Part shown: in pieces, positions 1,952 to 12,960 of the stretch
Layout of the letters: each line of letters begins with the position of its first letter
Position numbering within the stretch: position 1 is the first letter of the stretch
NCBI GenBank assembly: GCA_049303315.1
Contig: JBAQMZ010000029.1
Coordinates: 105,703 to 137,702 of the forward strand
Direction: 5' to 3'
Length of the DNA stretch: 32,000 bases
DNA from: Candidatus Methanoperedens sp.
GTDB lineage: Archaea; Halobacteriota; Methanosarcinia; Methanosarcinales; Methanoperedenaceae
The notes under the pieces: model-generated
Told to the model about the DNA's origin: nothing
Database searches by the model: none
The model's input: the letters and a program-made list of their open reading frames with translations, nothing else
Translations under genes and position numbers: made by a program

Positions 1952-3832
1952 ATGGATACTATAAAATATAACTTTAAACGATTGATAAAAGAATCATCAA
2001 AAACCCTCGCCAAAAGTACATCCAGAAAAAGAGCGGCATTTTATCTTATTTTTGATTCTGTCTTCATCAGTCTCTCCATGTATGGAGCATTTTACTTGCG
2101 TTTCGAAGGGACTATTCCAGAAAATATTATTGGAAGCGTCGGCATTTTTATACTACTTGCTCTTTTGGTCAAGATTCCAGTTCTCTACTATGAAGGATTA
2201 TATAAAGTAAGCTGGTCTTATGTGGGTCTCAAGGAGCTTTTATCACTGGTGAAAAGTTTATCCTTTGCCTCGTTTTTCTTCGGAACAATTCTTTTCTTCT
2301 TTCGAGCATCCCTCCTCTTTGCAGCATTCCCCAGGTCTATACTGATTATAGACTACATGCTGACCATTTTCTTTCTGGGGAGCTTTAGGGGCTCCAAGAG
2401 AATTTACCTCCAATACACTGGACGAATGCCGGGAAAAGGAGAAAAAGTCCTGATAATAGGGGCAGGGAATACTGGCGAGCAGATTGTCAGGAGCATGCTA
2501 ACTTCCGGTGATTACTTTCCTGTTGGCTTTCTGGATGATGACCACGGGAAAATAGGTTCGACTATACATGGTATAAAGGTTCTGGGTAAACGTGAGGAAA
2601 TGGCAAAGTTTGTAAAAGAACATGAAGTAGAAAGTATTTTAATAGCTATGCCTTCAGCCCCACCCAGAGTAATAAGAGAAACTGTTGATATCGGGAGAAC
2701 TGCAGGAATAAAAAAATTAAAAATAATCCCAAGTTTGCGGGAAATAATTTCAGGTAAGGTTACCCTTGCTGCTATTAAAGAGATCGAACTGGAAGACCTT
2801 TTAGGCAGAGAGCAGGTGGAGATTGATACAGAAGCTATTGGGAGCTATCTGGATGGGAAAACTATCCTTGTGACGGGAGCGAGCGGCTCAATAGGCTCTG
2901 AGCTATGTAAGCAGATTTTGAAGTTTAATCCGAAAGTGCTGTTAGCGCTGGATCAGGATGAAACAGGACTTTTCTGGTTAACGCGGCATATTGAGGACAC
3001 AAGACTTTTACCAGTGGTCGGAAACATAAAGGATATTAGTAAAATAGATAAGCTCTTTTGCGAATTTAAACCACATGTTGTTTTTCATGCAGCAGCCTAT
3101 AAGCATGTGCCTGTCATGGAAGAGCATCCGGACGAGGCTGTGAAGAATAATGTATTCGGGACGCTTGTGGTAGGAGAAGCCTCTATAAAATATGGGACTG
3201 AGAAGTTTATACTGGTATCCACTGATAAGGCTGTAAATCCTACATCTGTGATGGGCGCTACTAAAAGACTTGCTGAAAAGGCAATCGTGGAGCTGAATAA
3301 AAGAAACAACACGATATTCGCCGCAGTAAGATTCGGGAATGTCCTGGGAAGCAGGGGAAGCGTTATTCCCATTTTTAAAGAGCAAATAATGAAAGGAGGA
3401 CCTGTTGAAGTTACTCATCCTGAGATTAAGAGATATTTTATGGTGACTTCTGAATCTGTCCTCCTGATACTTCAAGCAGGAGCAATGGCAGAAGGGGGGG
3501 AGATTTTCGTACTTGATATGGGCGAGCCTGTAAAAATAGTAGATCTTGCACGGGAGATGATACGGCTATCAGGCTTTGAACCCGATAAGGATATTCCTGT
3601 GGTATTCACTGGTCTTCGCCGTGGCGAGAAACTTTATGAAGATTTGCTGACTGCTGAAGAAGGAACGGACTCAACATGCCATGAGAAAATTTTCAGAGCA
3701 AGGTTGAATCCAGAAAATAGTGGACTTTTAGATGACCTGAGTATATTGAGGGAGTTGTGCGAAGAGAGAAAGAGCGAGGAGATAATAGCTCTTATGCGCA
3801 GGATGATTCCAACCTATAATCCTGCAAGATAA
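1952..3832 (+). CDS. Membrane-anchored polysaccharide biosynthesis protein, CapD/PglF/WbpM type (NDP-sugar 4,6-dehydratase)
   Basis: Hydrophobic N-terminal third, then two nucleotide-binding motifs (IIGAGNTGEQI and VTGASGSIGSEL). Also AAAYKHVP and VSTDKAVNPTSVMGATKR, characteristic of this family. Confidence 0.85.
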   Translation: MDTIKYNFKRLIKESSKTLAKSTSRKRAAFYLIFDSVFISLSMYGAFYLRFEGTIPENIIGSVGIFILLALLVKIPVLYYEGLYKVSWSYVGLKELLSLVKSLSFASFFFGTILFFFRASLLFAAFPRSILIIDYMLTIFFLGSFRGSKRIYLQYTGRMPGKGEKVLIIGAGNTGEQIVRSMLTSGDYFPVGFLDDDHGKIGSTIHGIKVLGKREEMAKFVKEHEVESILIAMPSAPPRVIRETVDIGRTAGIKKLKIIPSLREIISGKVTLAAIKEIELEDLLGREQVEIDTEAIGSYLDGKTILVTGASGSIGSELCKQILKFNPKVLLALDQDETGLFWLTRHIEDTRLLPVVGNIKDISKIDKLFCEFKPHVVFHAAAYKHVPVMEEHPDEAVKNNVFGTLVVGEASIKYGTEKFILVSTDKAVNPTSVMGATKRLAEKAIVELNKRNNTIFAAVRFGNVLGSRGSVIPIFKEQIMKGGPVEVTHPEIKRYFMVTSESVLLILQAGAMAEGGEIFVLDMGEPVKIVDLAREMIRLSGFEPDKDIPVVFTGLRRGEKLYEDLLTAEEGTDSTCHEKIFRARLNPENSGLLDDLSILRELCEERKSEEIIALMRRMIPTYNPAR

Positions 3833-3837
3833 TCGGC

Positions 3838-4588
3838 ATGATAGATGATATGCTGGGATGGAGGACAGGAATAAGGCAGAGCAAAAAGGTATTGCTTACT
3901 TTCCTGATACTTTGATGAACCCAATGATATTCAAAAATTTTAGACGGGTTCATCAAACCTGTGCCCCTGATGGTGATAAATGTCGGGCAGAACACAATGG
4001 CATTCCCTTTTCTCGGCACTCTTTACATAGGTTTGCTCTATCCACTGCTGATAATCCTGCTCGGCATAATAGGCGCCTCCAACGCCTTTAACATGCTGGC
4101 TGGCTACAATGGACTTGAAGCCGGGGGTAGTGATACTTTCCACGCTCGGCTTAATAGCCTACAGCACTGGCAATACGGTAGCTGTAGTAATTGCAGTTAC
4201 AACGATTTCTGCCCTGATAGCCTTACTTTATTTCAACAAATACCCTGCTAAAGTGTTCCCCGGTGATACGTTAACGTATCCTGTCGGTGCAATAGTGGCG
4301 ATAGTTGCAATCCTTGGTAACATGGAAAAGTCTGCTGTTGTGCTTTTTTCTCTGTATTATATCGAGTTCCTGCTAAAGGCAAGAGGAAAACTAAGACCCG
4401 AATGGACAGCCAGGTTATTAGACGATGGCTCGCTTGCAGTCAGGGATAAAGTTTACAGCATCCCGCACATCGCCATTCTACTTTTAAGGAAAATAAAAGG
4501 GAAGGCTTATGAATATGAGGTTGTGATGGTCGTGCTGCTATTGCAGGTAATTATTGCGATATATACGCTGTATTCATTTTATGGGTAG
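3838..4588 (+). pseudogene. Decayed AglH/WecA/MraY-family (GT4 polyprenyl-phosphate HexNAc-1-P transferase) gene: N-terminally truncated, with in-frame stops and a frameshift
   Basis: The reading starts at MIDDMLGWRTGIRQSKK (the DD motif normally sits about 90 aa into these proteins), only 6 nt after the upstream stop. Three in-frame stops occur at 3913, 3916 and 3925. The family motif NAFNMLAGYNGLEAG is in frame 1, then the frame switches at the G5 run 4123-4127. The remainder (..YFNKYPAKVFPGDTLTYPVGA..) is read in frame 2 up to 4588. Confidence 0.7.
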
Positions 4589-4624
4589 AATGAAGGTTAA
4601 AAGTGCAGCTTATGCTTCTTGCAT

Positions 4625-4695
4625 CGGTGGCTTATCGGCGCCAGGATTTTAATATTTACAATTAGATAATAGTTCCTGTGAATCCTGTCGAAAAA
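4625..4695 (+). repeat. Repeat-module copy A (uninterrupted): cggtggcttatcggcgccaggattttaatatttacaattagataatagttcctgtgaatcctgtcgaaaaa
   Basis: Aligns along its length with 8571-8595 joined to 12633-12710. Contains the GGCGCC palindrome, a TATA-like tttaatattta and two tcctgt 9-mers. Confidence 0.8.
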
Positions 4696-4740
4696 GGGAA
4701 ATATCTGCGTTCATCTGCGGTTCCTTTTTTCACTGTCGAT

Positions 4741-4794
4741 GGTTGCACGGGTAACCTACAGGCGCCGAGATTTTAATATTTACGATGCGATAAT
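4741..4794 (+). repeat. Repeat-module copy B, truncated at 4794/4795 against an epimerase gene stub
   Basis: ggttgcacgggtaacctacaggcgccgagattttaatatttacgatgcgataat matches copies A, D and E. Similarity ends exactly where the minus-strand stub MRILITGGAGF begins. Confidence 0.7.
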
Positions 4795-4827
4795 AAATCC
4801 CGCGCCGCCTGTTATAAGTATTCTCAT
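4780..4827 (-). pseudogene. 15-codon stub of an NAD-dependent epimerase gene (MRILITGGAGFIIAS*)
   Basis: The ATG lies 5 nt downstream of the uxs stop. The Rossmann start ITGGAGF is followed by divergence into repeat copy B and an immediate stop. Confidence 0.55.
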
Positions 4828-4831
4828 TTAT

Positions 4832-5761
4832 TTATTCTAAAATACCTTTAAAGTACTTTATCGTTTCTTTTATCCCCTGCTCAAGTGAAACTTCCGGTTC
4901 CCACTCCAACAGTTCTCGCGCCTTCCCAATATCAGGTCTTCTCTGCTTTGGGTCATCAACAGGCAGCTCCTTAAAAGTAATTTTTGAATCGCTGCCTGTT
5001 ATCCTGATAATGAGTTTTGCAAATTCCAGTATCGAATACTCCTCTGGATTCCCGATATTCACAGGCTGAGTATAATCCGACATCATCAACCGGTAAATCC
5101 CTTCAACTTCATCACTCACGTAGCAGAAACTTCTGGTCTGAGAACCGTCGCCGTACACAGTCAGGTCTTCTCCGCGCAAAGCCTGCCCGATGAAATTCGG
5201 GACAACCCGCCCGTCATTCAGGCGCATCCTTGGACCATAGGTGTTAAATATCCTCACAATCCGCGTATTCACGCCATGATACCTGTGATATGCCATAGTT
5301 ATAGCCTCAGCAAACCGCTTTGCCTCATCATATACACCCCTGGGACCAATCGGGTTCACGTTTCCCCAATACTCCTCGGTCTGGGGATTCACAAGCGGGT
5401 CGCCGTAAACCTCGGATGTCGAAGACAGCAAAAAGCGTGCACCCTTCTCCTTGGCGAGACCGAGCATATTATGCGTACCAAGTGCCCCGACCTTCAATGT
5501 CTGGATTGGAAGTTCAAGGTAATCAATCGGGCTTGCAGGACTTGCAAGATGGAACAGGAAGTCGATATCGTCATCAATGTAAAGTGGCTTTGTCACATCA
5601 TGTTTTATGTAGCTGAATTTGTTATTGTCTATATGGGCAATATTTCTTGCATCTCCTGTTATGAGATTGTCCACACAAATTACCTCATATCCCTTCTCGA
5701 GCAGTAAATCGCAAAGATGCGAGCCAATAAATCCTGCACCGCCTGTTGCCATTGTTTTCAT
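4832..5761 (-). CDS. uxs: UDP-glucuronate decarboxylase (UDP-xylose synthase)
   Basis: [25 protein letters not shown] and the long block [48 protein letters not shown] are all characteristic of UXS enzymes. Confidence 0.85.
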
Positions 5762-5767
5762 ATTACC

Positions 5768-6772
5768 TCAGAATTCAATAGATGATGAATCCCCTATATT
5801 AAGCGAGTTATGTTTTCCAAGCACGCTGGCATCATCCCCAACAATGGAATCATGTAGATTTACTTTAGATATATGCGTTCGTGAACCGATTACACTGTTC
5901 GAAATAATGCTGTTATCGATATATGAATCACTCGCAATGGAGGCATGGGGGCCAATCACAGAGTTCAATATCGTAACATTATCGCCGACAGCAACAGGCT
6001 GGATGATTACTGAATCTTTTATCCGGTGTATATGGTCAATATCCTCTTTTTCATCAAGGAGTACCCTGTTTGTTTCAAGCAGTGATTCGGAATGACCACA
6101 GTCGTACCAGCTTGAAACCGGGAAGATTTTTAATTTGAGATTCCTGTTTACCATCTCCTGCAATGCATCGGTAAGCTGGAATTCACCCCGGGTACGAATA
6201 TCATTATGAATCATATCCTCAATTATCGACAGGAGAACCGATGTTTCCTTTATGAAATACACACCTGCTATCCCGAGGTTTGATGCGGGTTTCTGGGGTT
6301 TTTCCTCCAGCCTTTTAATATATTTTCCTTCGTGTTCTACAATACCGTATTTTGTCGGGTCATCAACTTCACGGACACCTATTGAAGCTGAACACTCTCC
6401 ATTATTTGAATATTGCCTGTAAAAATCAGAATAACCTGCCTTGAAAATCATATCGCCGAGTGCAATCATTATTTCCGAATCACCGATTTCATCCCTTGCG
6501 GTGTAAACAGAATGAGCAAGACCGAGTTGTTCATCCTGAGAGACATATTTTATGTTGAAAACGCGGGAATAATTCTCATTGACATAGGAAATAATCTGTT
6601 CTTTCTTGTAACCCACAACCAGTATCACTTCCTCTGGTTCCAGCTCCTTCATCCTGTCAAGGATATGCCCGATTATAGGTTTTCCTGCAATATATACCAT
6701 AGGCTTTGGTTTGGTGAACGTATGCGGAAAAAGACGCTTACCAGCACCTGCTGCCGGTATGACTACTTTCAT
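5768..6772 (-). CDS. Sugar-1-phosphate nucleotidylyltransferase with a C-terminal left-handed beta-helix domain
   Basis: N-terminal VIPAAGAGKRLFP..KPKPMV signature and a hexapeptide-like C-terminus. The ATG at 6772 is preferred over the GTG at 6778 used by the track. Sits between ugd and uxs. Confidence 0.8.
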   Translation of the reverse strand: MKVVIPAAGAGKRLFPHTFTKPKPMVYIAGKPIIGHILDRMKELEPEEVILVVGYKKEQIISYVNENYSRVFNIKYVSQDEQLGLAHSVYTARDEIGDSEIMIALGDMIFKAGYSDFYRQYSNNGECSASIGVREVDDPTKYGIVEHEGKYIKRLEEKPQKPASNLGIAGVYFIKETSVLLSIIEDMIHNDIRTRGEFQLTDALQEMVNRNLKLKIFPVSSWYDCGHSESLLETNRVLLDEKEDIDHIHRIKDSVIIQPVAVGDNVTILNSVIGPHASIASDSYIDNSIISNSVIGSRTHISKVNLHDSIVGDDASVLGKHNSLNIGDSSSIEF

Positions 6773-8443: not shown

Positions 8444-8570
8444 GCCTGTAAAATTGAACTGACATTACTTAAATCCTCTCCCAGAGCTCAAAGCCCTGCG
8501 CCAGCCTCTGTACGACCACAGCACTGCCAGGGTGGTTTTGCTTGCATGTGTCGGGAATAGTAGAAATGAT

Positions 8571-8595
8571 GTTGCTTCGGTTAGCATATCGGCGC
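8571..8595 (+). repeat. Repeat-module copy C, left half only (gttgcttcggttagcatatcggcgc), cut off by the insertion
   Basis: Matches the 5' part of copies E, A and B. The expected continuation (c-ggnnntttaatattta...) is found only at 12649 onward. Confidence 0.75.
8580..8595 (+). repeat. Left copy of the 16-bp direct repeat (putative target-site duplication) gttagcatatcggcgc
   Basis: Identical 16-mer at 12633-12648. The boundary is ambiguous by 1 nt, so the duplication is 15-16 bp. Confidence 0.75.
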
Positions 8596-8596
8596 A

Positions 8597-8642
8597 CGCC
8601 CCCCGCTCTGCATTTTCATGGTTTTTATTTATCTCTTTGTCC
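8597..8642 (+). repeat. Left terminal inverted repeat
   Basis: The tip cgccccccgc (8597-8606) is the exact reverse complement of 12624-12633. The block 8621-8642 (gtttttatttatctctttgtcc) matches the reverse complement of 12588-12609 at 17/22, at the same 23-nt offset from the tip. Confidence 0.7.
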
Positions 8643-8674
8643 TCTCTCGGGTTCACAATCATTAATATATCCTT

Positions 8675-8696
8675 GTTTTTATTTATACTTTTGTAC
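8675..8696 (+). repeat. Second subterminal copy of the 22-bp arm motif (gtttttatttatacttttgtac)
   Basis: Matches 8621-8642 at 18/22 and the reverse complement of 12588-12609 at 19/22. Confidence 0.55.
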
Positions 8697-8720
8697 TTTC
8701 GTTTTCTTCTTATATCTTTT

Positions 8721-8790
8721 TCACACCTCCCCCCACCACAGCACGTGACCACACCCTCACACACACAGCACACGCACACAGAGAGAAAAA
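8721..8790 (+). other. Strand-asymmetric C/A-rich, nearly T-free low-complexity tract in the left arm
   Basis: tcacacctccccccaccacagcacgtgaccacaccctcacacacacagcacacgcacacagagagaaaaa, with a central cacgtg palindrome. ORFs called across it translate to low-complexity Cys/Val/Gly or His/Thr/Pro strings. Confidence 0.5.
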
Positions 8791-8944
8791 AGTAAAACCG
8801 CTATCAAGCGGCGCTTTTATAAACACTATTCTTATAAAAAATGTAAATAAAATTCTCTCGATAACGATTATTTTAAATTTTATTAATATTATAAATAATT
8901 TACGCAAAAATCGCTATTGGTAAACACTTTTTATCTTAGGAAAA

Positions 8945-8981
8945 GCTTATATATAATAACAACTATATTACATAATCGTTA
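8945..8981 (+). promoter_or_regulatory. Candidate promoter/operator of the plus-strand cargo operon
   Basis: A TATA-like cttatatataat at about 8947-8958 is followed by taatcgtta (8973-8981). That 9-mer is the inverted partner of taacgatta at 8862-8870 and is related to the ttaacgatt tandem in the right arm. Confidence 0.3.
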
Positions 8982-9080
8982 CGTGTTGTCTGGTTGCAGG
9001 GAATCAAGTCTTTTTTCCCTGTAACTATTCCTGATTATAGGGAATATAGGCAGGTAACAGGAAAAGACCAGGAAGATAAC

Positions 9081-9620
9081 ATGTTGAATGAAATAAACAA
9101 TCCACTTAGTGGCGACACTATAAATCAAATAGTAGAAGATATTATAGGGGTTAATAAGGACAGCACAAACCGAATAGGACAACAACATTTAAAAGATATT
9201 ATACTTTGTGTTCATTCAAGAGCGCCTATAAAAAAAAGCACTCTTGTATCTATTTTGAGGGTAAAAATTCTAATCGGGGAAAGGTATGTAAACGAATATT
9301 TAGATGGTTTAGAAGCCTTAGAAATCATAAAACTTGATAAAAATATGATTCTTTGGAATTTTAACGATACTATAAAACCCGCAGAAATCCCCACAAAACA
9401 ACCATTAAATAATCATTTTAAACCCGATAAGAATGAGTTTAAAACGATAATAAAAGATGCTTCAAAGCAAATATATGACCAACGGGAAGAATTAAAAATT
9501 AAGGCAGATTCAGCCGAAGGAATCCCCTTTGAAGAAATGCTAAAACTCACGCCTTTTTCTGAATTGGGGATGAATCAGGAACAGTTTGAAACGTGGGTAT
9601 TAACACAAATTGAGGGTTAA
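9081..9620 (+). CDS. Winged-helix DNA-binding protein (putative element regulator)
   Basis: The segment KKSTLVSILRVKILIGERYVNEYLDGLEALEIIKLDKNMILWN reads as helix-turn-helix plus wing. ATG 9081 is preferred; the track starts at TTG 8994 in the same frame, so the start is uncertain. Confidence 0.55.
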   Translation: MLNEINNPLSGDTINQIVEDIIGVNKDSTNRIGQQHLKDIILCVHSRAPIKKSTLVSILRVKILIGERYVNEYLDGLEALEIIKLDKNMILWNFNDTIKPAEIPTKQPLNNHFKPDKNEFKTIIKDASKQIYDQREELKIKADSAEGIPFEEMLKLTPFSELGMNQEQFETWVLTQIEG

Positions 9621-9621
9621 T

Positions 9622-9846
9622 ATGCTATCTTTGAAAATTCGTTATCGGAAGAATGCAAAACCGACAGTTATTAATCTTGATGTTTCAGGTAATACAACTA
9701 TCGAAGAAATTGCAGAACAGGCAGCAAACAAGCTCGCAAAAGGGTTTAAAAGATATGCAACAGGTATTTCAGAAAGAAGCCTTGAAAAATACCGCTTTGC
9801 ACAATATATGATGTTGAAATTAAAGTTATCGGAGATGATTAAATAA
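9622..9846 (+). CDS. Hypothetical small protein (74 aa)
   Basis: ATG at 9622 preceded by gaggg (9612-9616). Its stop overlaps the next start (TAATG). Confidence 0.45.
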   Translation: MLSLKIRYRKNAKPTVINLDVSGNTTIEEIAEQAANKLAKGFKRYATGISERSLEKYRFAQYMMLKLKLSEMIK

Positions 9847-10121
9847 TGGCAAGAGATGTTGAAATTGAATTGGATTACGACAGTCAAACGGTAACTATTG
9901 TAAATCCTGATGGGGTTTATAGTTACGATATGACCGATGATATACTGAAATTAGCGAATGACTTGCTTGAAGGCGGTGCGGGATACAGTGTTTATTCGCA
10001 GGAAGACACATGGACGGAACAAATCAGCGATAAAATAGAGAAGCGCAGACAACTAAAAGAACAGTTGGCAGAGCTTGATGATGAAATCAGAGAAATAAAA
10101 GAAAAACATAAAGGAGGATGA
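9846..10121 (+). CDS. Hypothetical small acidic protein with a charged helical C-terminal tail (91 aa)
   Basis: Coupled start and stop with its neighbours. The C-terminus KIEKRRQLKEQLAELDDEIREIKEKHK looks like a coiled coil. Confidence 0.5.
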   Translation: MARDVEIELDYDSQTVTIVNPDGVYSYDMTDDILKLANDLLEGGAGYSVYSQEDTWTEQISDKIEKRRQLKEQLAELDDEIREIKEKHKGG

Positions 10122-10125
10122 AATA

Positions 10126-10818
10126 ATGGCAAATGAAGAACTTAAAGACCTTGTAGAAACCGCAAACAGACAAGATATAAGATTCCTGTTTAATCGCTTT
10201 GACTGTAACAATTTAGAAAAAGCTTTCCGTGTGGCACACGAATTAAATCAGAAAGTGGATAAACCGATATGCAAAGGCTTTATTGAAAAGGATGGAAAGC
10301 TATTCAAACAGATGTCAAAAACTGTATGGCGTGTGGGTAGGAATTATGACCGTAACGTAGTTCTCGAAGTGGATAACCACGATTTAAATAACCTGCGAGA
10401 GCTATATAATTTCTATAAGTCACTTCTTGGACAGGATTTTAACGTATTCAAAACCTTACATGGTTTTCACGTAATCCAGAAAGTAGCGTACAAAACAAAT
10501 GATGAATGGCTCTATGCTAACAGTTTGTTATTGAATCCGTCTTTGAAGTTAGAGGATTTAGCAGATTACGTTGAAAAGATAAAGGCTTTCGATAACAGTA
10601 AACGCAACGATGATACCGTAAAAGATACTCATAAACTGTTGGGCACAAAAGAAGATTACATTAGAGACTTTAAGAAATCTGGATTATTTCAAGGTACTGG
10701 CGAGTTCGACCTTCTATATACTATCCGTGGAATATGTTTTAATAAGTACACATTGAGAATATCAAAGAAAACACCAACTGACAAATACGAACGGGTAGAC
10801 ATGGAGAAATTGACATGA
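10126..10818 (+). CDS. Hypothetical protein (230 aa) with weak archaeo-eukaryotic primase / prim-pol-like motifs
   Basis: aggagg-like RBS (ggaggatg) upstream. Candidate motifs are VVLEVDNHD (acidic metal-binding strand), KTLHGFHVI (compare sGxGxHhh) and NDEWLYANSLLLNPS (compare hD...hhhPPS). The assignment rests on motifs only. Confidence 0.5.
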   Translation: MANEELKDLVETANRQDIRFLFNRFDCNNLEKAFRVAHELNQKVDKPICKGFIEKDGKLFKQMSKTVWRVGRNYDRNVVLEVDNHDLNNLRELYNFYKSLLGQDFNVFKTLHGFHVIQKVAYKTNDEWLYANSLLLNPSLKLEDLADYVEKIKAFDNSKRNDDTVKDTHKLLGTKEDYIRDFKKSGLFQGTGEFDLLYTIRGICFNKYTLRISKKTPTDKYERVDMEKLT

Positions 10819-11111
10819 AAATCGATAAAATACCAATAGAGGAGGCGTATAACCTCATTTTACATCCGATACAGCACATAATATCCATAAATCCACGGAT
10901 AATAACCCGTATGGAGTTGATTCTATTACATGCAGTTAATCCGGTGCTGGCAGATAAGGTATTCCAAGAAGGTAACCTATCGGATGAAGTGCGAGAATCA
11001 CTTACACCAACACCAGAACAATACAAAGCGAGATTAGTTGAGCAATATAGAATATGTGAAACAAAATCACATAAAAAAGGTTGGAAGAAATTTAAAAAAG
11101 GATTAAAATGA
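10815..11111 (+). CDS. Hypothetical protein (98 aa) with a basic C-terminal tail
   Basis: ATGA overlap with the upstream stop. Tail sequence KSHKKGWKKFKKGLK. Confidence 0.45.
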   Translation: MKIDKIPIEEAYNLILHPIQHIISINPRIITRMELILLHAVNPVLADKVFQEGNLSDEVRESLTPTPEQYKARLVEQYRICETKSHKKGWKKFKKGLK

Positions 11112-11284
11112 AGATTAGAGACGTTATAAAAATCCAAAGAAAAGAAGCAGTAAAAACTAAAACAAGTATCCGCTTTGCGCTAAAAAGCGATACTGATAAA
11201 GGTTTTTATTGTAGATTATTTGATAATCAAGTTAAGTTTTGCAGTATAACTTTTTGTAATTATTTAACTTTGTGTGAAAGATGA
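11108..11284 (+). CDS. Possible 58-aa Cys-containing ORF (below the track cutoff)
   Basis: ATGA overlap with the upstream stop. Translation MKIRDVIKIQRKEAVKTKTSIRFALKSDTDKGFYCRLFDNQVKFCSITFCNYLTLCER* contains four Cys residues. Confidence 0.3.
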   Translation: MKIRDVIKIQRKEAVKTKTSIRFALKSDTDKGFYCRLFDNQVKFCSITFCNYLTLCER

Positions 11285-11292
11285 AATTTAAA

Positions 11293-12336
11293 CTATAACA
11301 TTTTTTCAATTTTCCGTATCAATGGAAGGCTTTTAAGCTCTAATGGGTTAAGTACAAACATAAACTCATTCAAAGCAATATCAAAAGCATTATCTTTGAA
11401 GGTCATGCTCATTTTATCTTTTGTAAAAGTGAAATCAGTTGGTTTTATTCTTAATCCTAAAATCATCTCTATAACCTGACTGTCAATCCATACCCTATAA
11501 GGCTCTATGAAATCATAAACAAGCATATTCCAGTAAGGTTTTTGTGCTTCATTCTGATGCATGAAGCCTATGGATAGCTCAAAACCACGTTTTAATAATA
11601 GTTCACTCATTCTTTGAGCTAACAAAGAATAACCTAAATTCAACATGGAGTTTATCGGGTCAACTGCATTTTTATTACCTGATACTTTCCCGTGCCTGCC
11701 TTTCCAATTCCATTCTTTACCAAACACCCAGTTTTTGAAATATAGATTTGCTGAAATGGCTTCTATTTGCATAATCTCTTTTATATCCAGTGCCTTGTTA
11801 AGTTTAGGGATATAATCTTTCATGCCTTGCGATTCCAGTTTTAACTTTATCAAATATTTAGTTATCTCCAATGCTTTGCCGTTAATCCTTGATTCCACTT
11901 GTTTTATAATCAATGATGGTCTTTTAAAATTGAACGGTAAAAAGCTTGCATCAACTTTACCTTTGCTATCAATCCAGTATATTGCTATCGAATTAGCTTT
12001 AGCAAAATCAATAAAAGCAGTAGAAATATAACCTTTTCCATTAGGCGTTATGATAATTCTTTCAGTATTATGAAGGTCTATCGGATAATCCTTTTTAACC
12101 TCTATTTTTTTGTTGTGCTCTCTAAGGAATTTTAGATATAATTTACCATGATGATTTATTCTCTTTTCAGGTAATCCGGCTTTCTTATCCCGTTCTAATT
12201 GCTGGCTCATTAATTCGTCAATTTCACTATCGGTATAAGGTCTTTCTGTTGTTTCAATATGTGTAAATACGGGTTTAAGATTCTGCTTTCTTAGAGCAAA
12301 TAGACTATTTATCAATAATGACGATTCATTATTCAT
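11293..12336 (-). CDS. cas1: Cas1-family integrase homolog, solo (casposase-like)
   Basis: The Cas1 architecture is readable by eye. N-terminal beta domain: ERIIITPNGKGYISTAFIDFAKANSIAIYWIDSKGKVDASFLP. Glutamate motif: QIEAISANLYFKNW. Also NAVDPINSMLNLGYSLLAQ, histidine motif LSIGFMHQ and acidic motif LVYDFIEPYRVWID. No cas2, cas4 or CRISPR array in the window. Confidence 0.8.
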   Translation of the reverse strand: MNNESSLLINSLFALRKQNLKPVFTHIETTERPYTDSEIDELMSQQLERDKKAGLPEKRINHHGKLYLKFLREHNKKIEVKKDYPIDLHNTERIIITPNGKGYISTAFIDFAKANSIAIYWIDSKGKVDASFLPFNFKRPSLIIKQVESRINGKALEITKYLIKLKLESQGMKDYIPKLNKALDIKEIMQIEAISANLYFKNWVFGKEWNWKGRHGKVSGNKNAVDPINSMLNLGYSLLAQRMSELLLKRGFELSIGFMHQNEAQKPYWNMLVYDFIEPYRVWIDSQVIEMILGLRIKPTDFTFTKDKMSMTFKDNAFDIALNEFMFVLNPLELKSLPLIRKIEKML

Positions 12337-12409
12337 ACGAGTTCACCAATTTATATAAAGCTTCAATCCAATTTATAACTTGCCTATCCCTTAATTACGA
12401 GTTCACCAA
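12336..12409 (-). promoter_or_regulatory. cas1 promoter region: palindromic TATA box flanked by two 14-bp direct repeats
   Basis: tttatataaa at 12350-12359 has its upstream edge 23 nt from the A of the ATG, which implies a leaderless or near-leaderless mRNA. tacgagttcaccaa occurs at 12336-12349 (overlapping the start codon) and again at 12396-12409. Confidence 0.45.
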
Positions 12410-12519
12410 ACTGTTTTTTTGGGGTAGGTACTTTACTTTTCTTAGACTGCACCGCTTGTTAGTGATTATTTTGTGTGAATACGGGATACTCCGATTTTAG
12501 GGAAAGAGTATGAAGGTAT

Positions 12520-12595
12520 AATTGTACAAATAGGACAATAATTGTTAACGATTCTTAACGATTGTCAACCAGAACGAGAATCTAATTGCACAAAT
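12520..12595 (+). repeat. Right-arm subterminal repeats
   Basis: aattgtacaaat (12520-12531) and aattgcacaaat (12584-12595) match 11/12. They bracket a tandem ttaacgatt (12545-12553 and 12555-12563, 10-bp period). Confidence 0.6.
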
Positions 12596-12633
12596 GTATA
12601 AATAATAACATTAATATAAATAGGCGGGGGGCG
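12588..12633 (-). repeat. Right terminal inverted repeat
   Basis: The reverse complement reads cgccccccgc...gttattatttatacatttgtgc, pairing with 8597-8642. Confidence 0.7.
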
Positions 12634-12648
12634 TTAGCATATCGGCGC
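12633..12648 (+). repeat. Right copy of the 16-bp direct repeat (putative target-site duplication)
   Basis: gttagcatatcggcgc, identical to 8580-8595. Confidence 0.75.
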
Positions 12649-12710
12649 CGGGAGTTTAATATTTATGATGTGATAATAGTTCCTGTCAGTCCTGTTAATC
12701 CTGTCAAAAA
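12633..12710 (+). repeat. Repeat-module copy D, right part, continuing copy C
   Basis: gttagcatatcggcgccgggagtttaatatttatgatgtgataatagttcctgtcagtcctgttaatcctgtcaaaaa aligns with copy A. It has three tcctgt 9-mers where A has two. Confidence 0.75.
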
Positions 12711-12724
12711 TTCATGACACGGGG

Positions 12725-12776
12725 GTTGCTTCGGGAGCATACTGGCGCCGCCAATTTAATATTCACGATGTAATAT
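12725..12776 (+). repeat. Repeat-module copy E
   Basis: gttgcttcgggagcatactggcgccgccaatttaatattcacgatgtaatat. Confidence 0.7.
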
Positions 12777-12960
12777 ATGTATCTTTCGCCCCCCCATCGA
12801 GCACTTGCCTCTCCCACCCTCCCTGCGCTAAAACCCCACCTTTGCTTTGCACAATAGCAAAAGACTGGGATGATGGCAAGAAAGAGTGGGTATTTAAATA
12901 ATTCATGTCACCTGAGTTTATGTTGCATGAGATGGCAACGCTTCAACCGAGAGTAAACCC

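Follow-up and report, generated by a model that had tools for sequence, protein, structure and literature searches.

The window that we analysed, a stretch of 32,000 nt within a 233-kb contig of Candidatus Methanoperedens, carries on the minus strand, at 11293–12336, a cas1 gene encoding a 347-aa integrase of the Cas1 family that resembles casposases. A previous sequence-only reading of this DNA had proposed that the 347-aa ORF was a Cas1 homolog; the ORF is real, and an HMM search supports its assignment (Pfam PF01867, E=4.6e-34). Among the NCBIfam models, the protein scores well above the cutoff of the generic Cas1 model TIGR00287 (121.9 vs 71.7 bits), the only one that it passes: with the subtype-specific Cas1 models it stays far under the cutoffs throughout, the best of them (I-D) giving 74 bits where 385 are required. 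The proposed catalytic positions, E192 (QIEAIS), H260 (GFMHQ), and D275/E278 (YDFIEPYR), are intact and align with the catalytic residues of casposases and Cas1; no substitution was found at any of them, the four residues being invariant in 28 family members. With E-values of ~1e-15 to 1e-11, the AlphaFold model of the protein (pLDDT 86.8) resembles both CRISPR Cas1 structures and the casposase 6opm; the latter, from Methanosarcina mazei, is the top solved-structure match both by sequence and by fold.

The termini of the protein had been described as unusual, with a missing C-terminal HTH domain and an N-terminal extension of ~60 aa preceding the fold. The first of these features is confirmed, as residues 174–330 align to positions 158–315 of the 431-residue casposase and just 17 residues remain after them, but it is not unique, since family-1 casposases also lack the HTH domain (PMC8464041). 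The second does not hold, since residues 6–33 (LLINSLFALRKQNLKPVFT...) correspond to the first Cas1 beta-strands: they are strongly conserved in the family, form three beta-strands in the AlphaFold model, and align with strands beta1–beta2 of casposases and Cas1. The truly additional part is internal, a variable insertion of ~40–50 aa inside the N-terminal domain that folds as a helical hairpin (residues 36–73) and that, speculatively, may replace the absent C-terminal HTH in DNA binding or oligomerisation.

The cas1 gene sits within a low-GC element of 4039 bp (8596–12634) that the earlier reading had overlooked. It interrupts polysaccharide-synthesis genes, compared with which it is AT-rich, its GC content being 0.31–0.36 as against 0.40–0.45 outside. 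The element is flanked by two exact copies of a 14-bp target-site duplication, TAGCATATCGGCGC, at 8582–8595 and 12635–12648 (the exact direct repeat reaches 16 nt, 8580–8595 on the left, when an ambiguous GT is included). These copies lie 4053 nt apart, and only 0.18 matches per window would be expected by chance even with 3 mismatches allowed. Immediately inside them are terminal inverted repeats. The left one (8596–8674, plus strand) begins with a core, ACGCCCCCCGC, perfect over 11/11 positions (8596–8606) and continued by local alignment of the ends as an imperfect arm of ~79 nt; the right one (12547–12634, minus strand) ends with the reverse complement of ACGCCCCCCGC at 12624–12634. Written as the strand carrying the 3'-OH, the element end reads ...GCGGGGGGCGT-3'OH. 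A sub-terminal motif, TTATTTATCTCTTTGT, is found on the plus strand at 8625–8640, 29 nt from the left terminus, with a second copy at 8679–8694, and also within the right inverted repeat (12590–12605). It recurs 29–30 nt from the termini in the related elements L012, L023, and L044/L045, and is a candidate casposase binding site.

From one end of the element, cas1 reads inward, and from the other a block of six small ORFs does so. Upstream of cas1, on the minus strand, the region 12338–12410 contains (C)GAGTTCACCAA twice (TTGGTGAAC when read along cas1), at a spacing of 60 nt; it is conserved in relatives, where the alignment shows invariant TTTGGTGAA blocks, and is likely a promoter or operator. 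The earlier description of this Cas1 as solo is misleading: no cas2 or CRISPR partner accompanies it, but the gene does have conserved partners, namely the element ends and the convergent small-gene block.

The six small genes are all encoded on the plus strand, and none of them has a significant match in Pfam, PHROGs, or NCBIfam. The block opens with a 208-aa ORF (8994–9620, with a possible ATG start at 9081), which has no family match and at most a faint hint of a winged HTH (E=0.24). It is followed by a 78-aa ORF (9610–9846) with weak relatives in the elements L013–L017 (32% identity, E ~1e-4) and by a 91-aa ORF (9846–10121) with a relative in the L021 element and, by eye, a similar 73-aa ORF at the same position in L023. 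The last two, of 98 aa (10815–11111) and 58 aa (11108–11284), have no family match. Between these pairs lies a 230-aa ORF (10126–10818) belonging to an orphan family that accompanies this Cas1: in 10 distinct elements, its gene and cas1 converge. In this family D83 and R211 are invariant, T110, G113, D195, and K215 are nearly so, and the motifs IDID..., KT.xGY.LI, GDFD, and LRISKK can be recognized. A profile built from 64 of its sequences had no match among PDB sequences or in Pfam, and a Foldseek search with the protein model retrieved AEP primases as top matches, all sub-threshold, as well as uncharacterised archaeal virus proteins. A role of the 230-aa protein as a small primase or in initiating replication is possible but less likely than not. 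None of the ORFs of the window element showed a polymerase domain, of family B or otherwise, and none encodes another transposase; the involvement of another transposase as mobiliser was rejected on this ground.

In a genome collection, an alignment-based query recovered 7 loci and a single-protein query no relative. About 100 close relatives of the Cas1 protein are all of the same solo type, after which identity drops abruptly to 30%. The related Methanoperedens elements measure 3.6–4.0 kb and have inverted ends of 26–237 nt and 14-bp duplications: L020 (~4.02 kb) has perfect inverted repeats of 26 nt and a 13–14-bp duplication, L023 (3608 bp) perfect inverted repeats of 219 nt and the 14-bp duplication GACCCCAACGGAAG, and L012 (3701 bp) inverted repeats of 237 nt. 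The P0004 element occurs with two different flanks (L008 vs L009/L010), joined in each case exactly at the terminus. A naive search combining direct and inverted repeats did not find the ends of most relatives; these emerged only once the surroundings of cas1 had been aligned and the sub-terminal motif followed from element to element. Where ends are missing, the contig stops inside the element, or else the copy has decayed or belongs to the other subclade, described below. In every related element, Cas1 faces a block of small genes that includes the orphan ~230-aa protein, and no family-B polymerase was detected among the genes called in the related loci or in a scan of the 10 largest flanking ORFs. 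Frameshifts affect several relatives (L004, L005, L041, and L044/L045), and many copies are consequently dead. A subclade whose Cas1 proteins are 50–55% identical is associated with a different 3-kb module containing RadC and DUF6908, for which neither inverted repeats nor a duplication were detectable. In a collection of viral contigs we found no close relative, only one distant Cas1 (25% identity) located beside a CRISPR array.

Seven independent insertions, in both orientations, share one insertion point, GGCGC|CGG..TTTAAT, within an intergenic unit that is repeated. A conserved, TATA-box-like flank, CGGGAGTTTAATATTTA (12649–12665, plus strand, in the window), lies directly downstream of every insertion into this unit. 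The putative anchor is one-sided, and the duplicated 14 bp are variable apart from GGCGC. The window also contains an uninterrupted paralogue of the unit (4612–4700, plus strand), a kind of paralogous “empty site” that matches the rejoined flanks, and further copies at ~4740–4800 and 12726–12780. A degenerate third copy at 12733 was considered as the remnant of a tandem insertion and rejected, because it corresponds to the neighbouring copy of the repeated target unit. The L023 element is inserted in a different target sequence. Neither a tRNA gene nor an Rfam family explains the target, and an exact look-up of the neighbouring UDP-glucose dehydrogenase, aimed at an orthologous empty site, returned nothing on record.

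Casposons are self-synthesizing transposons that combine a Cas1 integrase with a family-B polymerase. They are ~8–20 kb in size, and those of family 2 generate target-site duplications of 14–15 bp at the ends of tRNA or EF-2 genes. To our knowledge, a DNA polymerase is present in all casposons described so far. The element in the window and its relatives share with them an integrase of the Cas1 family whose active site is intact and which has no CRISPR linkage, terminal inverted repeats (in the window, an 11-nt perfect core in an imperfect arm of ~80 nt), a long target-site duplication (14 bp in the window and in L023, 13–14 bp in L020), site-specific insertion beside a conserved anchor, and an archaeal host of the Methanosarcinales. 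In contrast with casposons, they lack a family-B DNA polymerase and, consequently, are not “self-synthesizing”; they are several-fold smaller (3.6–4.0 kb), their cargo consists of small orphan genes including the conserved ~230-aa protein, their Cas1 proteins make up a deep clade of their own and have a helical hairpin inserted in the N-terminal domain, and their target is a repeated, promoter-like intergenic unit instead of the tRNA or EF-2 gene ends used by family 2. Four families of casposons (1–4) have been distinguished (Krupovic et al. 2014, PMC4046053). The best studied is family 2, from Methanosarcina mazei and Aciduliprofundum boonei, and family 1 occurs in Nitrosopumilus; the absence of a C-terminal HTH is a likeness to family 1 (PMC8464041).

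By profile score, the Cas1 family studied here is closest to casposases (90–93 bits), the best CRISPR Cas1 reaching 76 bits and the Cas1-solo group 1 of Methanomicrobiales, from which it is far removed, 17–31 bits. In a neighbour-joining tree (200 bootstraps) with 27 reference sequences from Additional file 2 of PMC4046053, the family is placed beside casposase families 2 and 3, with weak deep nodes and a bootstrap of just 4–15% for the casposase grouping; because of these values, we base the casposase label on the profile scores and the element anatomy.

Taken with the boundaries of the element, these data make it very probable that the 347-aa protein serves as integrase, or casposase, for a casposon-like element of Candidatus Methanoperedens that is miniature, lacks a polymerase, and occupies 8596–12634 of the window. 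The window element and its relatives are a new polymerase-less casposon-like family, of which we found no description in the literature searched. The sequence-only reading had spoken of an active integrase operating outside CRISPR adaptation. Its second half is well founded, given the intact residues, the mobile element, and the lack of cas2 and arrays both here and in the family loci; integrase activity itself is inferred.

Another view would be that of an integrative plasmid or virus-like episome, replicating freely as a 4-kb molecule, initiated or primed by the 230-aa protein, and using Cas1 solely to enter and leave the chromosome. The cargo does resemble that of a small archaeal cryptic plasmid, with a ribbon-helix-helix-like 48-aa ORF and small DNA-binding-like ORFs in L023 (both recognized by eye) accompanying the conserved and possibly primase-like protein, and many relatives lie on contigs of 3.7–4.7 kb. 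However, we rejected these short contigs as circular episomes, none showing the terminal overlap that would indicate a circle, and the 4272-nt contig L020 has host flanks and the duplication at both ends. Neither capsid nor known replication domains were detected in the ORFs of the window element or in the 64 members of the 230-aa family, and the viral contig collection lacks close relatives. We thus consider an episome unlikely; it also overlaps the casposon-like explanation, Cas1 being the integrase in both.

Much less probable still is a domesticated or inactive Cas1 with a host function, flanked by repeats that another enzyme would have made or that would be there by coincidence. This would be the situation of Cas1-solo group 1, also stand-alone cas1 genes of methanogen-related archaea, among which no member retains the full catalytic set or shows signs of mobility (PMC4046053). 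The subclade with the RadC/DUF6908 module, devoid of detectable inverted repeats, would fit such a scenario. By contrast, in the family studied here the catalytic tetrad is invariant, the ends are inverted repeats with target duplications, the insertion sites vary, the same element occurs in different flanks, and no other transposase is encoded; moreover, its host belongs to the order Methanosarcinales, and group 1, which is confined to Methanomicrobiales, is the least similar of all reference groups. Finally, a displaced or relic adaptation gene from a CRISPR-Cas locus elsewhere in the genome is largely refuted and hardly credible: it would agree with the public annotation, with the passing of the generic Cas1 equivalog model, and with a scan covering 32 kb of the 233-kb contig, but not with the failure of all subtype-specific models, the exclusively solo type of the ~100 close relatives before the drop to 30% identity, the location of cas1 between inverted repeats and target duplications, the lack of cas2, cas4, effector genes, and repeat-spacer arrays in the window, which the earlier reading had correctly reported, or the absence of arrays from all 47 family loci (the same scan being positive in two distant outgroup loci, L007 and L050) and of cas2 or any other Cas family from their annotated genes.

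By analogy with biochemically studied casposases and with Cas1–Cas2, insertion of the casposon-like element may start with a Cas1 oligomer binding its ends, probably via TTATTTATCTCTTTGT at ~29 nt from each terminus, and recognising the conserved anchor GGCGC|CGG..TTTAAT in the repeated intergenic unit. The two 3'-OH ends of the element would then be joined to opposite strands 14 bp apart, and filling of the gaps by host repair would generate the 14-bp duplication. Given a one-sided anchor and 14 bp in which only GGCGC is constant, a ruler probably determines the position of the second cut, much as when Cas1–Cas2 recognises leader and repeat. The resemblance to CRISPR Cas1 would thus extend from the two-domain fold and catalytic residues to the staggered integration, proposed here, that duplicates the segment between cuts. 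The differences are that the family has no cas2, cas4, or CRISPR array, that the integrated DNA is the enzyme's own element and not a short spacer, and that the duplication is of 14 bp instead of the 28–37 bp of a CRISPR repeat. Lacking a family-B polymerase, the element would have to depend on polymerases of the host, helped perhaps by the 230-aa protein, should this act as a small primase or initiate replication.

That a family of such compact elements combines clean inverted repeats and 14-bp duplications with the lack of a polymerase indicates that Cas1-mediated transposition needs no family-B polymerase partner. The family enlarges the spectrum of Cas1-based mobile elements known so far, and it offers a natural case near the reduced intermediate that is postulated when the origin of CRISPR adaptation is modelled. 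In its boldest form, which we regard as rather doubtful, this interpretation would see in it a fifth family of Cas1-driven elements, a minimal one (~4 kb, no polymerase), with a one-sided promoter-proximal anchor and a 14-bp ruler, the 230-aa protein as a new mini primase or initiator replacing the polymerase, and the helical insertion of Cas1 replacing the HTH. If true, it would be a living analogue of the stage of a “casposon stripped to Cas1 + repeats” proposed for that origin. The parts involved are short and defined (a 347-aa protein, inverted repeats of 11–237 nt, and a target of ~30 nt), which makes the one-sided anchor and ruler testable in vitro, and such a small site-specific integrase may be of practical interest. 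In public annotation the 347-aa protein is labelled “CRISPR-associated endonuclease Cas1”; in Methanoperedens genomes, a “CRISPR-associated Cas1” label on genes of this kind is not evidence for CRISPR immunity.

The 347-aa ORF at 11293-12336 (minus strand), which the sequence-only reading had taken for a Cas1 with intact catalytic residues and without a C-terminal HTH domain, matches Pfam Cas_Cas1 (E=4.6e-34) and the generic NCBIfam Cas1 equivalog TIGR00287 (121.9 bits, cutoff 71.7); it lies far under the cutoff of every subtype-specific NCBIfam Cas1 model, none of which was reached. The top match among solved structures in a sequence search was 6opm (E=5.9e-13; Foldseek label ‘Casposase bound to integration product’), with the CRISPR Cas1 structures of Synechocystis and Archaeoglobus ranking behind it. 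An AlphaFold model built from an alignment of 28 family members (mean pLDDT 86.8) also retrieved 6opm first from the PDB with Foldseek (E=3e-15, 23% identity), ahead of numerous structures of CRISPR Cas1. The motifs QIEAIS, GFMHQ, and YDFIEPYR align opposite the 6opm casposase motifs GVEG, GFLHE, and YDLQEPFR, and residues E192, H260, D275, and E278 are invariant in the 28 members. Only 17 residues follow the segment aligned to casposase residues 158-315 of 431. These profile, alignment, and fold results confirm the Cas1 assignment, the catalytic residues, and the missing HTH domain. A Methanosarcina mazei casposase structure has been published (PMC6977970).

The proposed N-terminal extension is instead an internal insertion. 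Residues 7-25 (LLINxPFALRQ..P.YT) are the best-conserved N-terminal stretch of the family, and residues 6-33 form three beta-strands in the AlphaFold model, followed by two long helices (36-52 and 57-73) and then by the strands that profile models detect from residue 71 on. In a MAFFT alignment, the first ~25 residues pair with strands beta1-beta2 of reference casposases and Cas1 (in M. mazei, MKLLLLNGHGINMHVDGAKLHIK), and the subsequent 45-50 residues form an insertion, longer in some family members than in others.

Compared with 27 reference sequences that Krupovic et al. 2014 (PMC4046053) list in their Additional file 2, the window Cas1 has its best pairwise match in a family-1 casposase from Nitrosopumilus koreensis (65 bits). 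The family profile scores 90-93 bits against family-2 and family-1 casposases, 75.6 bits against the best CRISPR Cas1 (Synechocystis), and 17-31 bits against Cas1-solo group 1. In a neighbour-joining tree, the family is monophyletic in 100% of bootstraps and stands beside casposase families 2 and 3, but the nodes joining it to casposases have 4-15% support and all deep groupings ≤21%. Judged from these sequence comparisons, it is a distinct deep Cas1 clade that by score comes nearest to casposases.

The window is otherwise occupied by polysaccharide and glycosylation genes with a GC content of 0.40-0.45, which falls to 0.31-0.36 at ~8.6-12.6 kb, where six small plus-strand ORFs devoid of Pfam, PHROGs, or NCBIfam matches face the minus-strand cas1. 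This stretch is bounded by an exact 16-nt direct repeat, GTTAGCATATCGGCGC, at 8580-8595 and 12633-12648 (chance expectation 0.18 matches with three mismatches allowed). Directly inside lies the inverted terminus ACGCCCCCCGC (8596-8606; reverse complement at 12624-12634), and local alignment of both ends reveals an imperfect inverted repeat of ~80 nt. We set the ends at the perfect 11-nt termini, so that the element spans 4039 bp (8596-12634) and the target duplication is 14 bp (TAGCATATCGGCGC). A 104-aa minus-strand ORF (8465-8779) crosses the left junction, taking in part of the host flank as well as the inverted repeat; it matches no family and almost certainly is not a real gene. A (CA)n/(AC)n tract lies just inside the element end (8750-8780); such tracts also occur upstream of cas1 in related loci L008-L010, and at L020 (AC)7 followed by TAAATAACTATTA is the terminal inverted repeat itself. 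Upstream of the window cas1, TTTGGTGAA occurs at 12338-12350 and 12398-12410, 60 nt apart. A second conserved upstream motif, GTACCTAYCCCAAAAA, is found in L044/L045 as an inverted pair (5889-5928 and 9214-9251), upstream of cas1 and past the small-gene block; this arrangement hints that a regulator encoded by the element acts on a shared operator.

A database protein of Candidatus Methanoperedens sp., encoded on a 233-kb contig, shows 100% identity to the window Cas1; the next ~100 clusters all have 46-85% identity (~320-367 aa when complete), beyond which similarity drops abruptly. Complete or nearly complete elements of comparable build surround some of these genes: L020 (Cas1 69% identical to that of the window; ~4.02 kb) has perfect 26-nt inverted repeats and a 13-14-bp duplication, G(G)ACATATCGGCGC; L023 (54%; 3608 bp) has perfect 219-nt inverted repeats and a 14-bp duplication, GACCCCAACGGAAG; and L012 (63%; 3701 bp) has 237-nt inverted repeats, its right flank lying off the contig end. 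The window, L012, L023, and L044/L045 share a sub-terminal motif, TTATTTATCTCTTTGT, 29-30 nt from the terminus. The P0004 element (71% identity) occurs in two unrelated flanks joined exactly at its terminus, in L008 versus L009/L010, which is direct evidence of past movement.

Seven independent insertions (window, L020, L009/L010, L008, L012, L021, and L044/L045) occurred at one point, ...GGCGC|CGG(N)TTTAAT..., in both orientations; the L023 target sequence is different. This point belongs to a repeated intergenic unit, of which the 355 kb of retrieved DNA hold 13 distinct copies versus 0.2 in shuffles. The unit has a partly palindromic, GC-rich part and, after it, a TATA-box-like motif, and ends ...GGCGC CGG(N)TTTAAT(A). 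The element inserts into it by preference; the unit may be a promoter module, an attC-like site, or a MITE. The window has four copies (4612-4700, 4740-4800, 12635-12710, and 12726-12780), and others are in L012 (~3430-3490, 4250-4310, 5620-5685, and 6450-6515) and L004 (~110-170, 1325-1385, and 2420-2480). The copy at 4612-4700, a paralogue without an insertion, can be aligned over the point where the two rejoined window flanks meet; an exact look-up of the neighbouring UDP-glucose dehydrogenase yielded no orthologous empty site. L012 carries one copy per gap between small toxin-antitoxin-type gene cassettes (PIN, HEPN/NTase) and in this arrangement is reminiscent of cassette arrays. In the window, one copy lies just downstream of a family-4 glycosyltransferase gene (PF00953) split into two overlapping ORFs (3961-4251 and 4109-4588), which match positions 41-93 and 95-159 of the profile; either a sequencing error or a pseudogene with a frameshift is the probable cause.

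A family-B polymerase is absent from the window element, and none appears among the genes called in the related loci or among their large ORFs; elements of 3.6-4.0 kb have no room for one. The conserved partner of Cas1 is an orphan protein (230 aa in the window, at 10126-10818 on the plus strand; 181-274 aa elsewhere), whose gene points towards cas1 in 10 distinct elements; its family comprises only 75 clusters in 1.84 billion representative proteins. Even a 64-sequence profile found no match in Pfam or PDB sequences. Conserved positions include D83 in an hhhDhD-like strand, KT..GY.LI, GDFD, and LRISKK. The top Foldseek hits of its model (pLDDT 77.7) are archaeo-eukaryotic primase-polymerases (LigD polymerase domain, PriS, and Prim-PolC); since E-values are 0.15-1 and TM-scores low, this resemblance is no more than a lead.

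The element probably functions as a casposon does. Of the defining features it has three, namely an integrase of the Cas1 family, inverted repeats at its termini, and a long duplication of the target, and it lacks the family-B polymerase. Its Cas1 is neither of the CRISPR adaptation kind nor of Cas1-solo group 1. The suggestion of an active integrase outside CRISPR adaptation holds for its second part: a scan for regularly spaced repeats detected no CRISPR-like array in the window, as originally noted, or in 47 family loci; the only such arrays lay in L007 and L050, two distant outgroup loci with 27% and 25% identity, respectively. Activity is probable by analogy with established casposase and Cas1-Cas2 chemistry, according to which Cas1 would bind the element ends, probably via the sub-terminal motif, and recognise the one-sided anchor GGCGC|CGG..TTTAAT; the two 3′ ends would be joined to opposite strands 14 bp apart, with host repair making the duplication. 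The duplicated 14 bp differ between sites except for GGCGC and the flank is conserved on one side, so the distal cut is probably measured, not read. By inserting directly before the TATA-like box of an intergenic repeat, the element would avoid disrupting genes and have many sites available per genome. For its replication it must rely either on host functions or on the 230-aa protein, should that protein be a primase or initiator. Our full-text search, which covered literature outside subscription journals, found no paper treating Methanoperedens and casposons together and no polymerase-less casposon, of which an earlier description is possible; a preprint on the Methanoperedens mobilome names Cas1 only for CRISPR adaptation.

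A second Cas1 subclade (50-55% identity) resides in a conserved ~3-kb module of co-directional genes (two small ORFs, DUF6908, RadC, and cas1) from which the 230-aa protein is absent, with neither inverted repeats nor target duplication visible at its homology boundaries. It occurs in L002, L003, L022, L035, L001/L029, and, within one MAG, in L004 (5277-8283) and L005 (5241-8272), whose copies share 90% identity and each carry a frameshift in cas1. Many element copies are decayed: frameshifts or stop codons split cas1 in L004, L005, L035, L038, L041, and L044/L045, so the family includes immobilised copies, and L044/L045 retains a single recognisable element end. The L001 contig (MFNH01000068.1, RBG_16_scaffold_853; Cas1 54% identical) is binned as Candidatus Levybacteria, a CPR bacterium; since the RBG_16 sample is also a source of Methanoperedens plasmid scaffolds (10.1101/2023.08.02.551345), the contig was probably put in the wrong bin and represents archaeal or extrachromosomal DNA.
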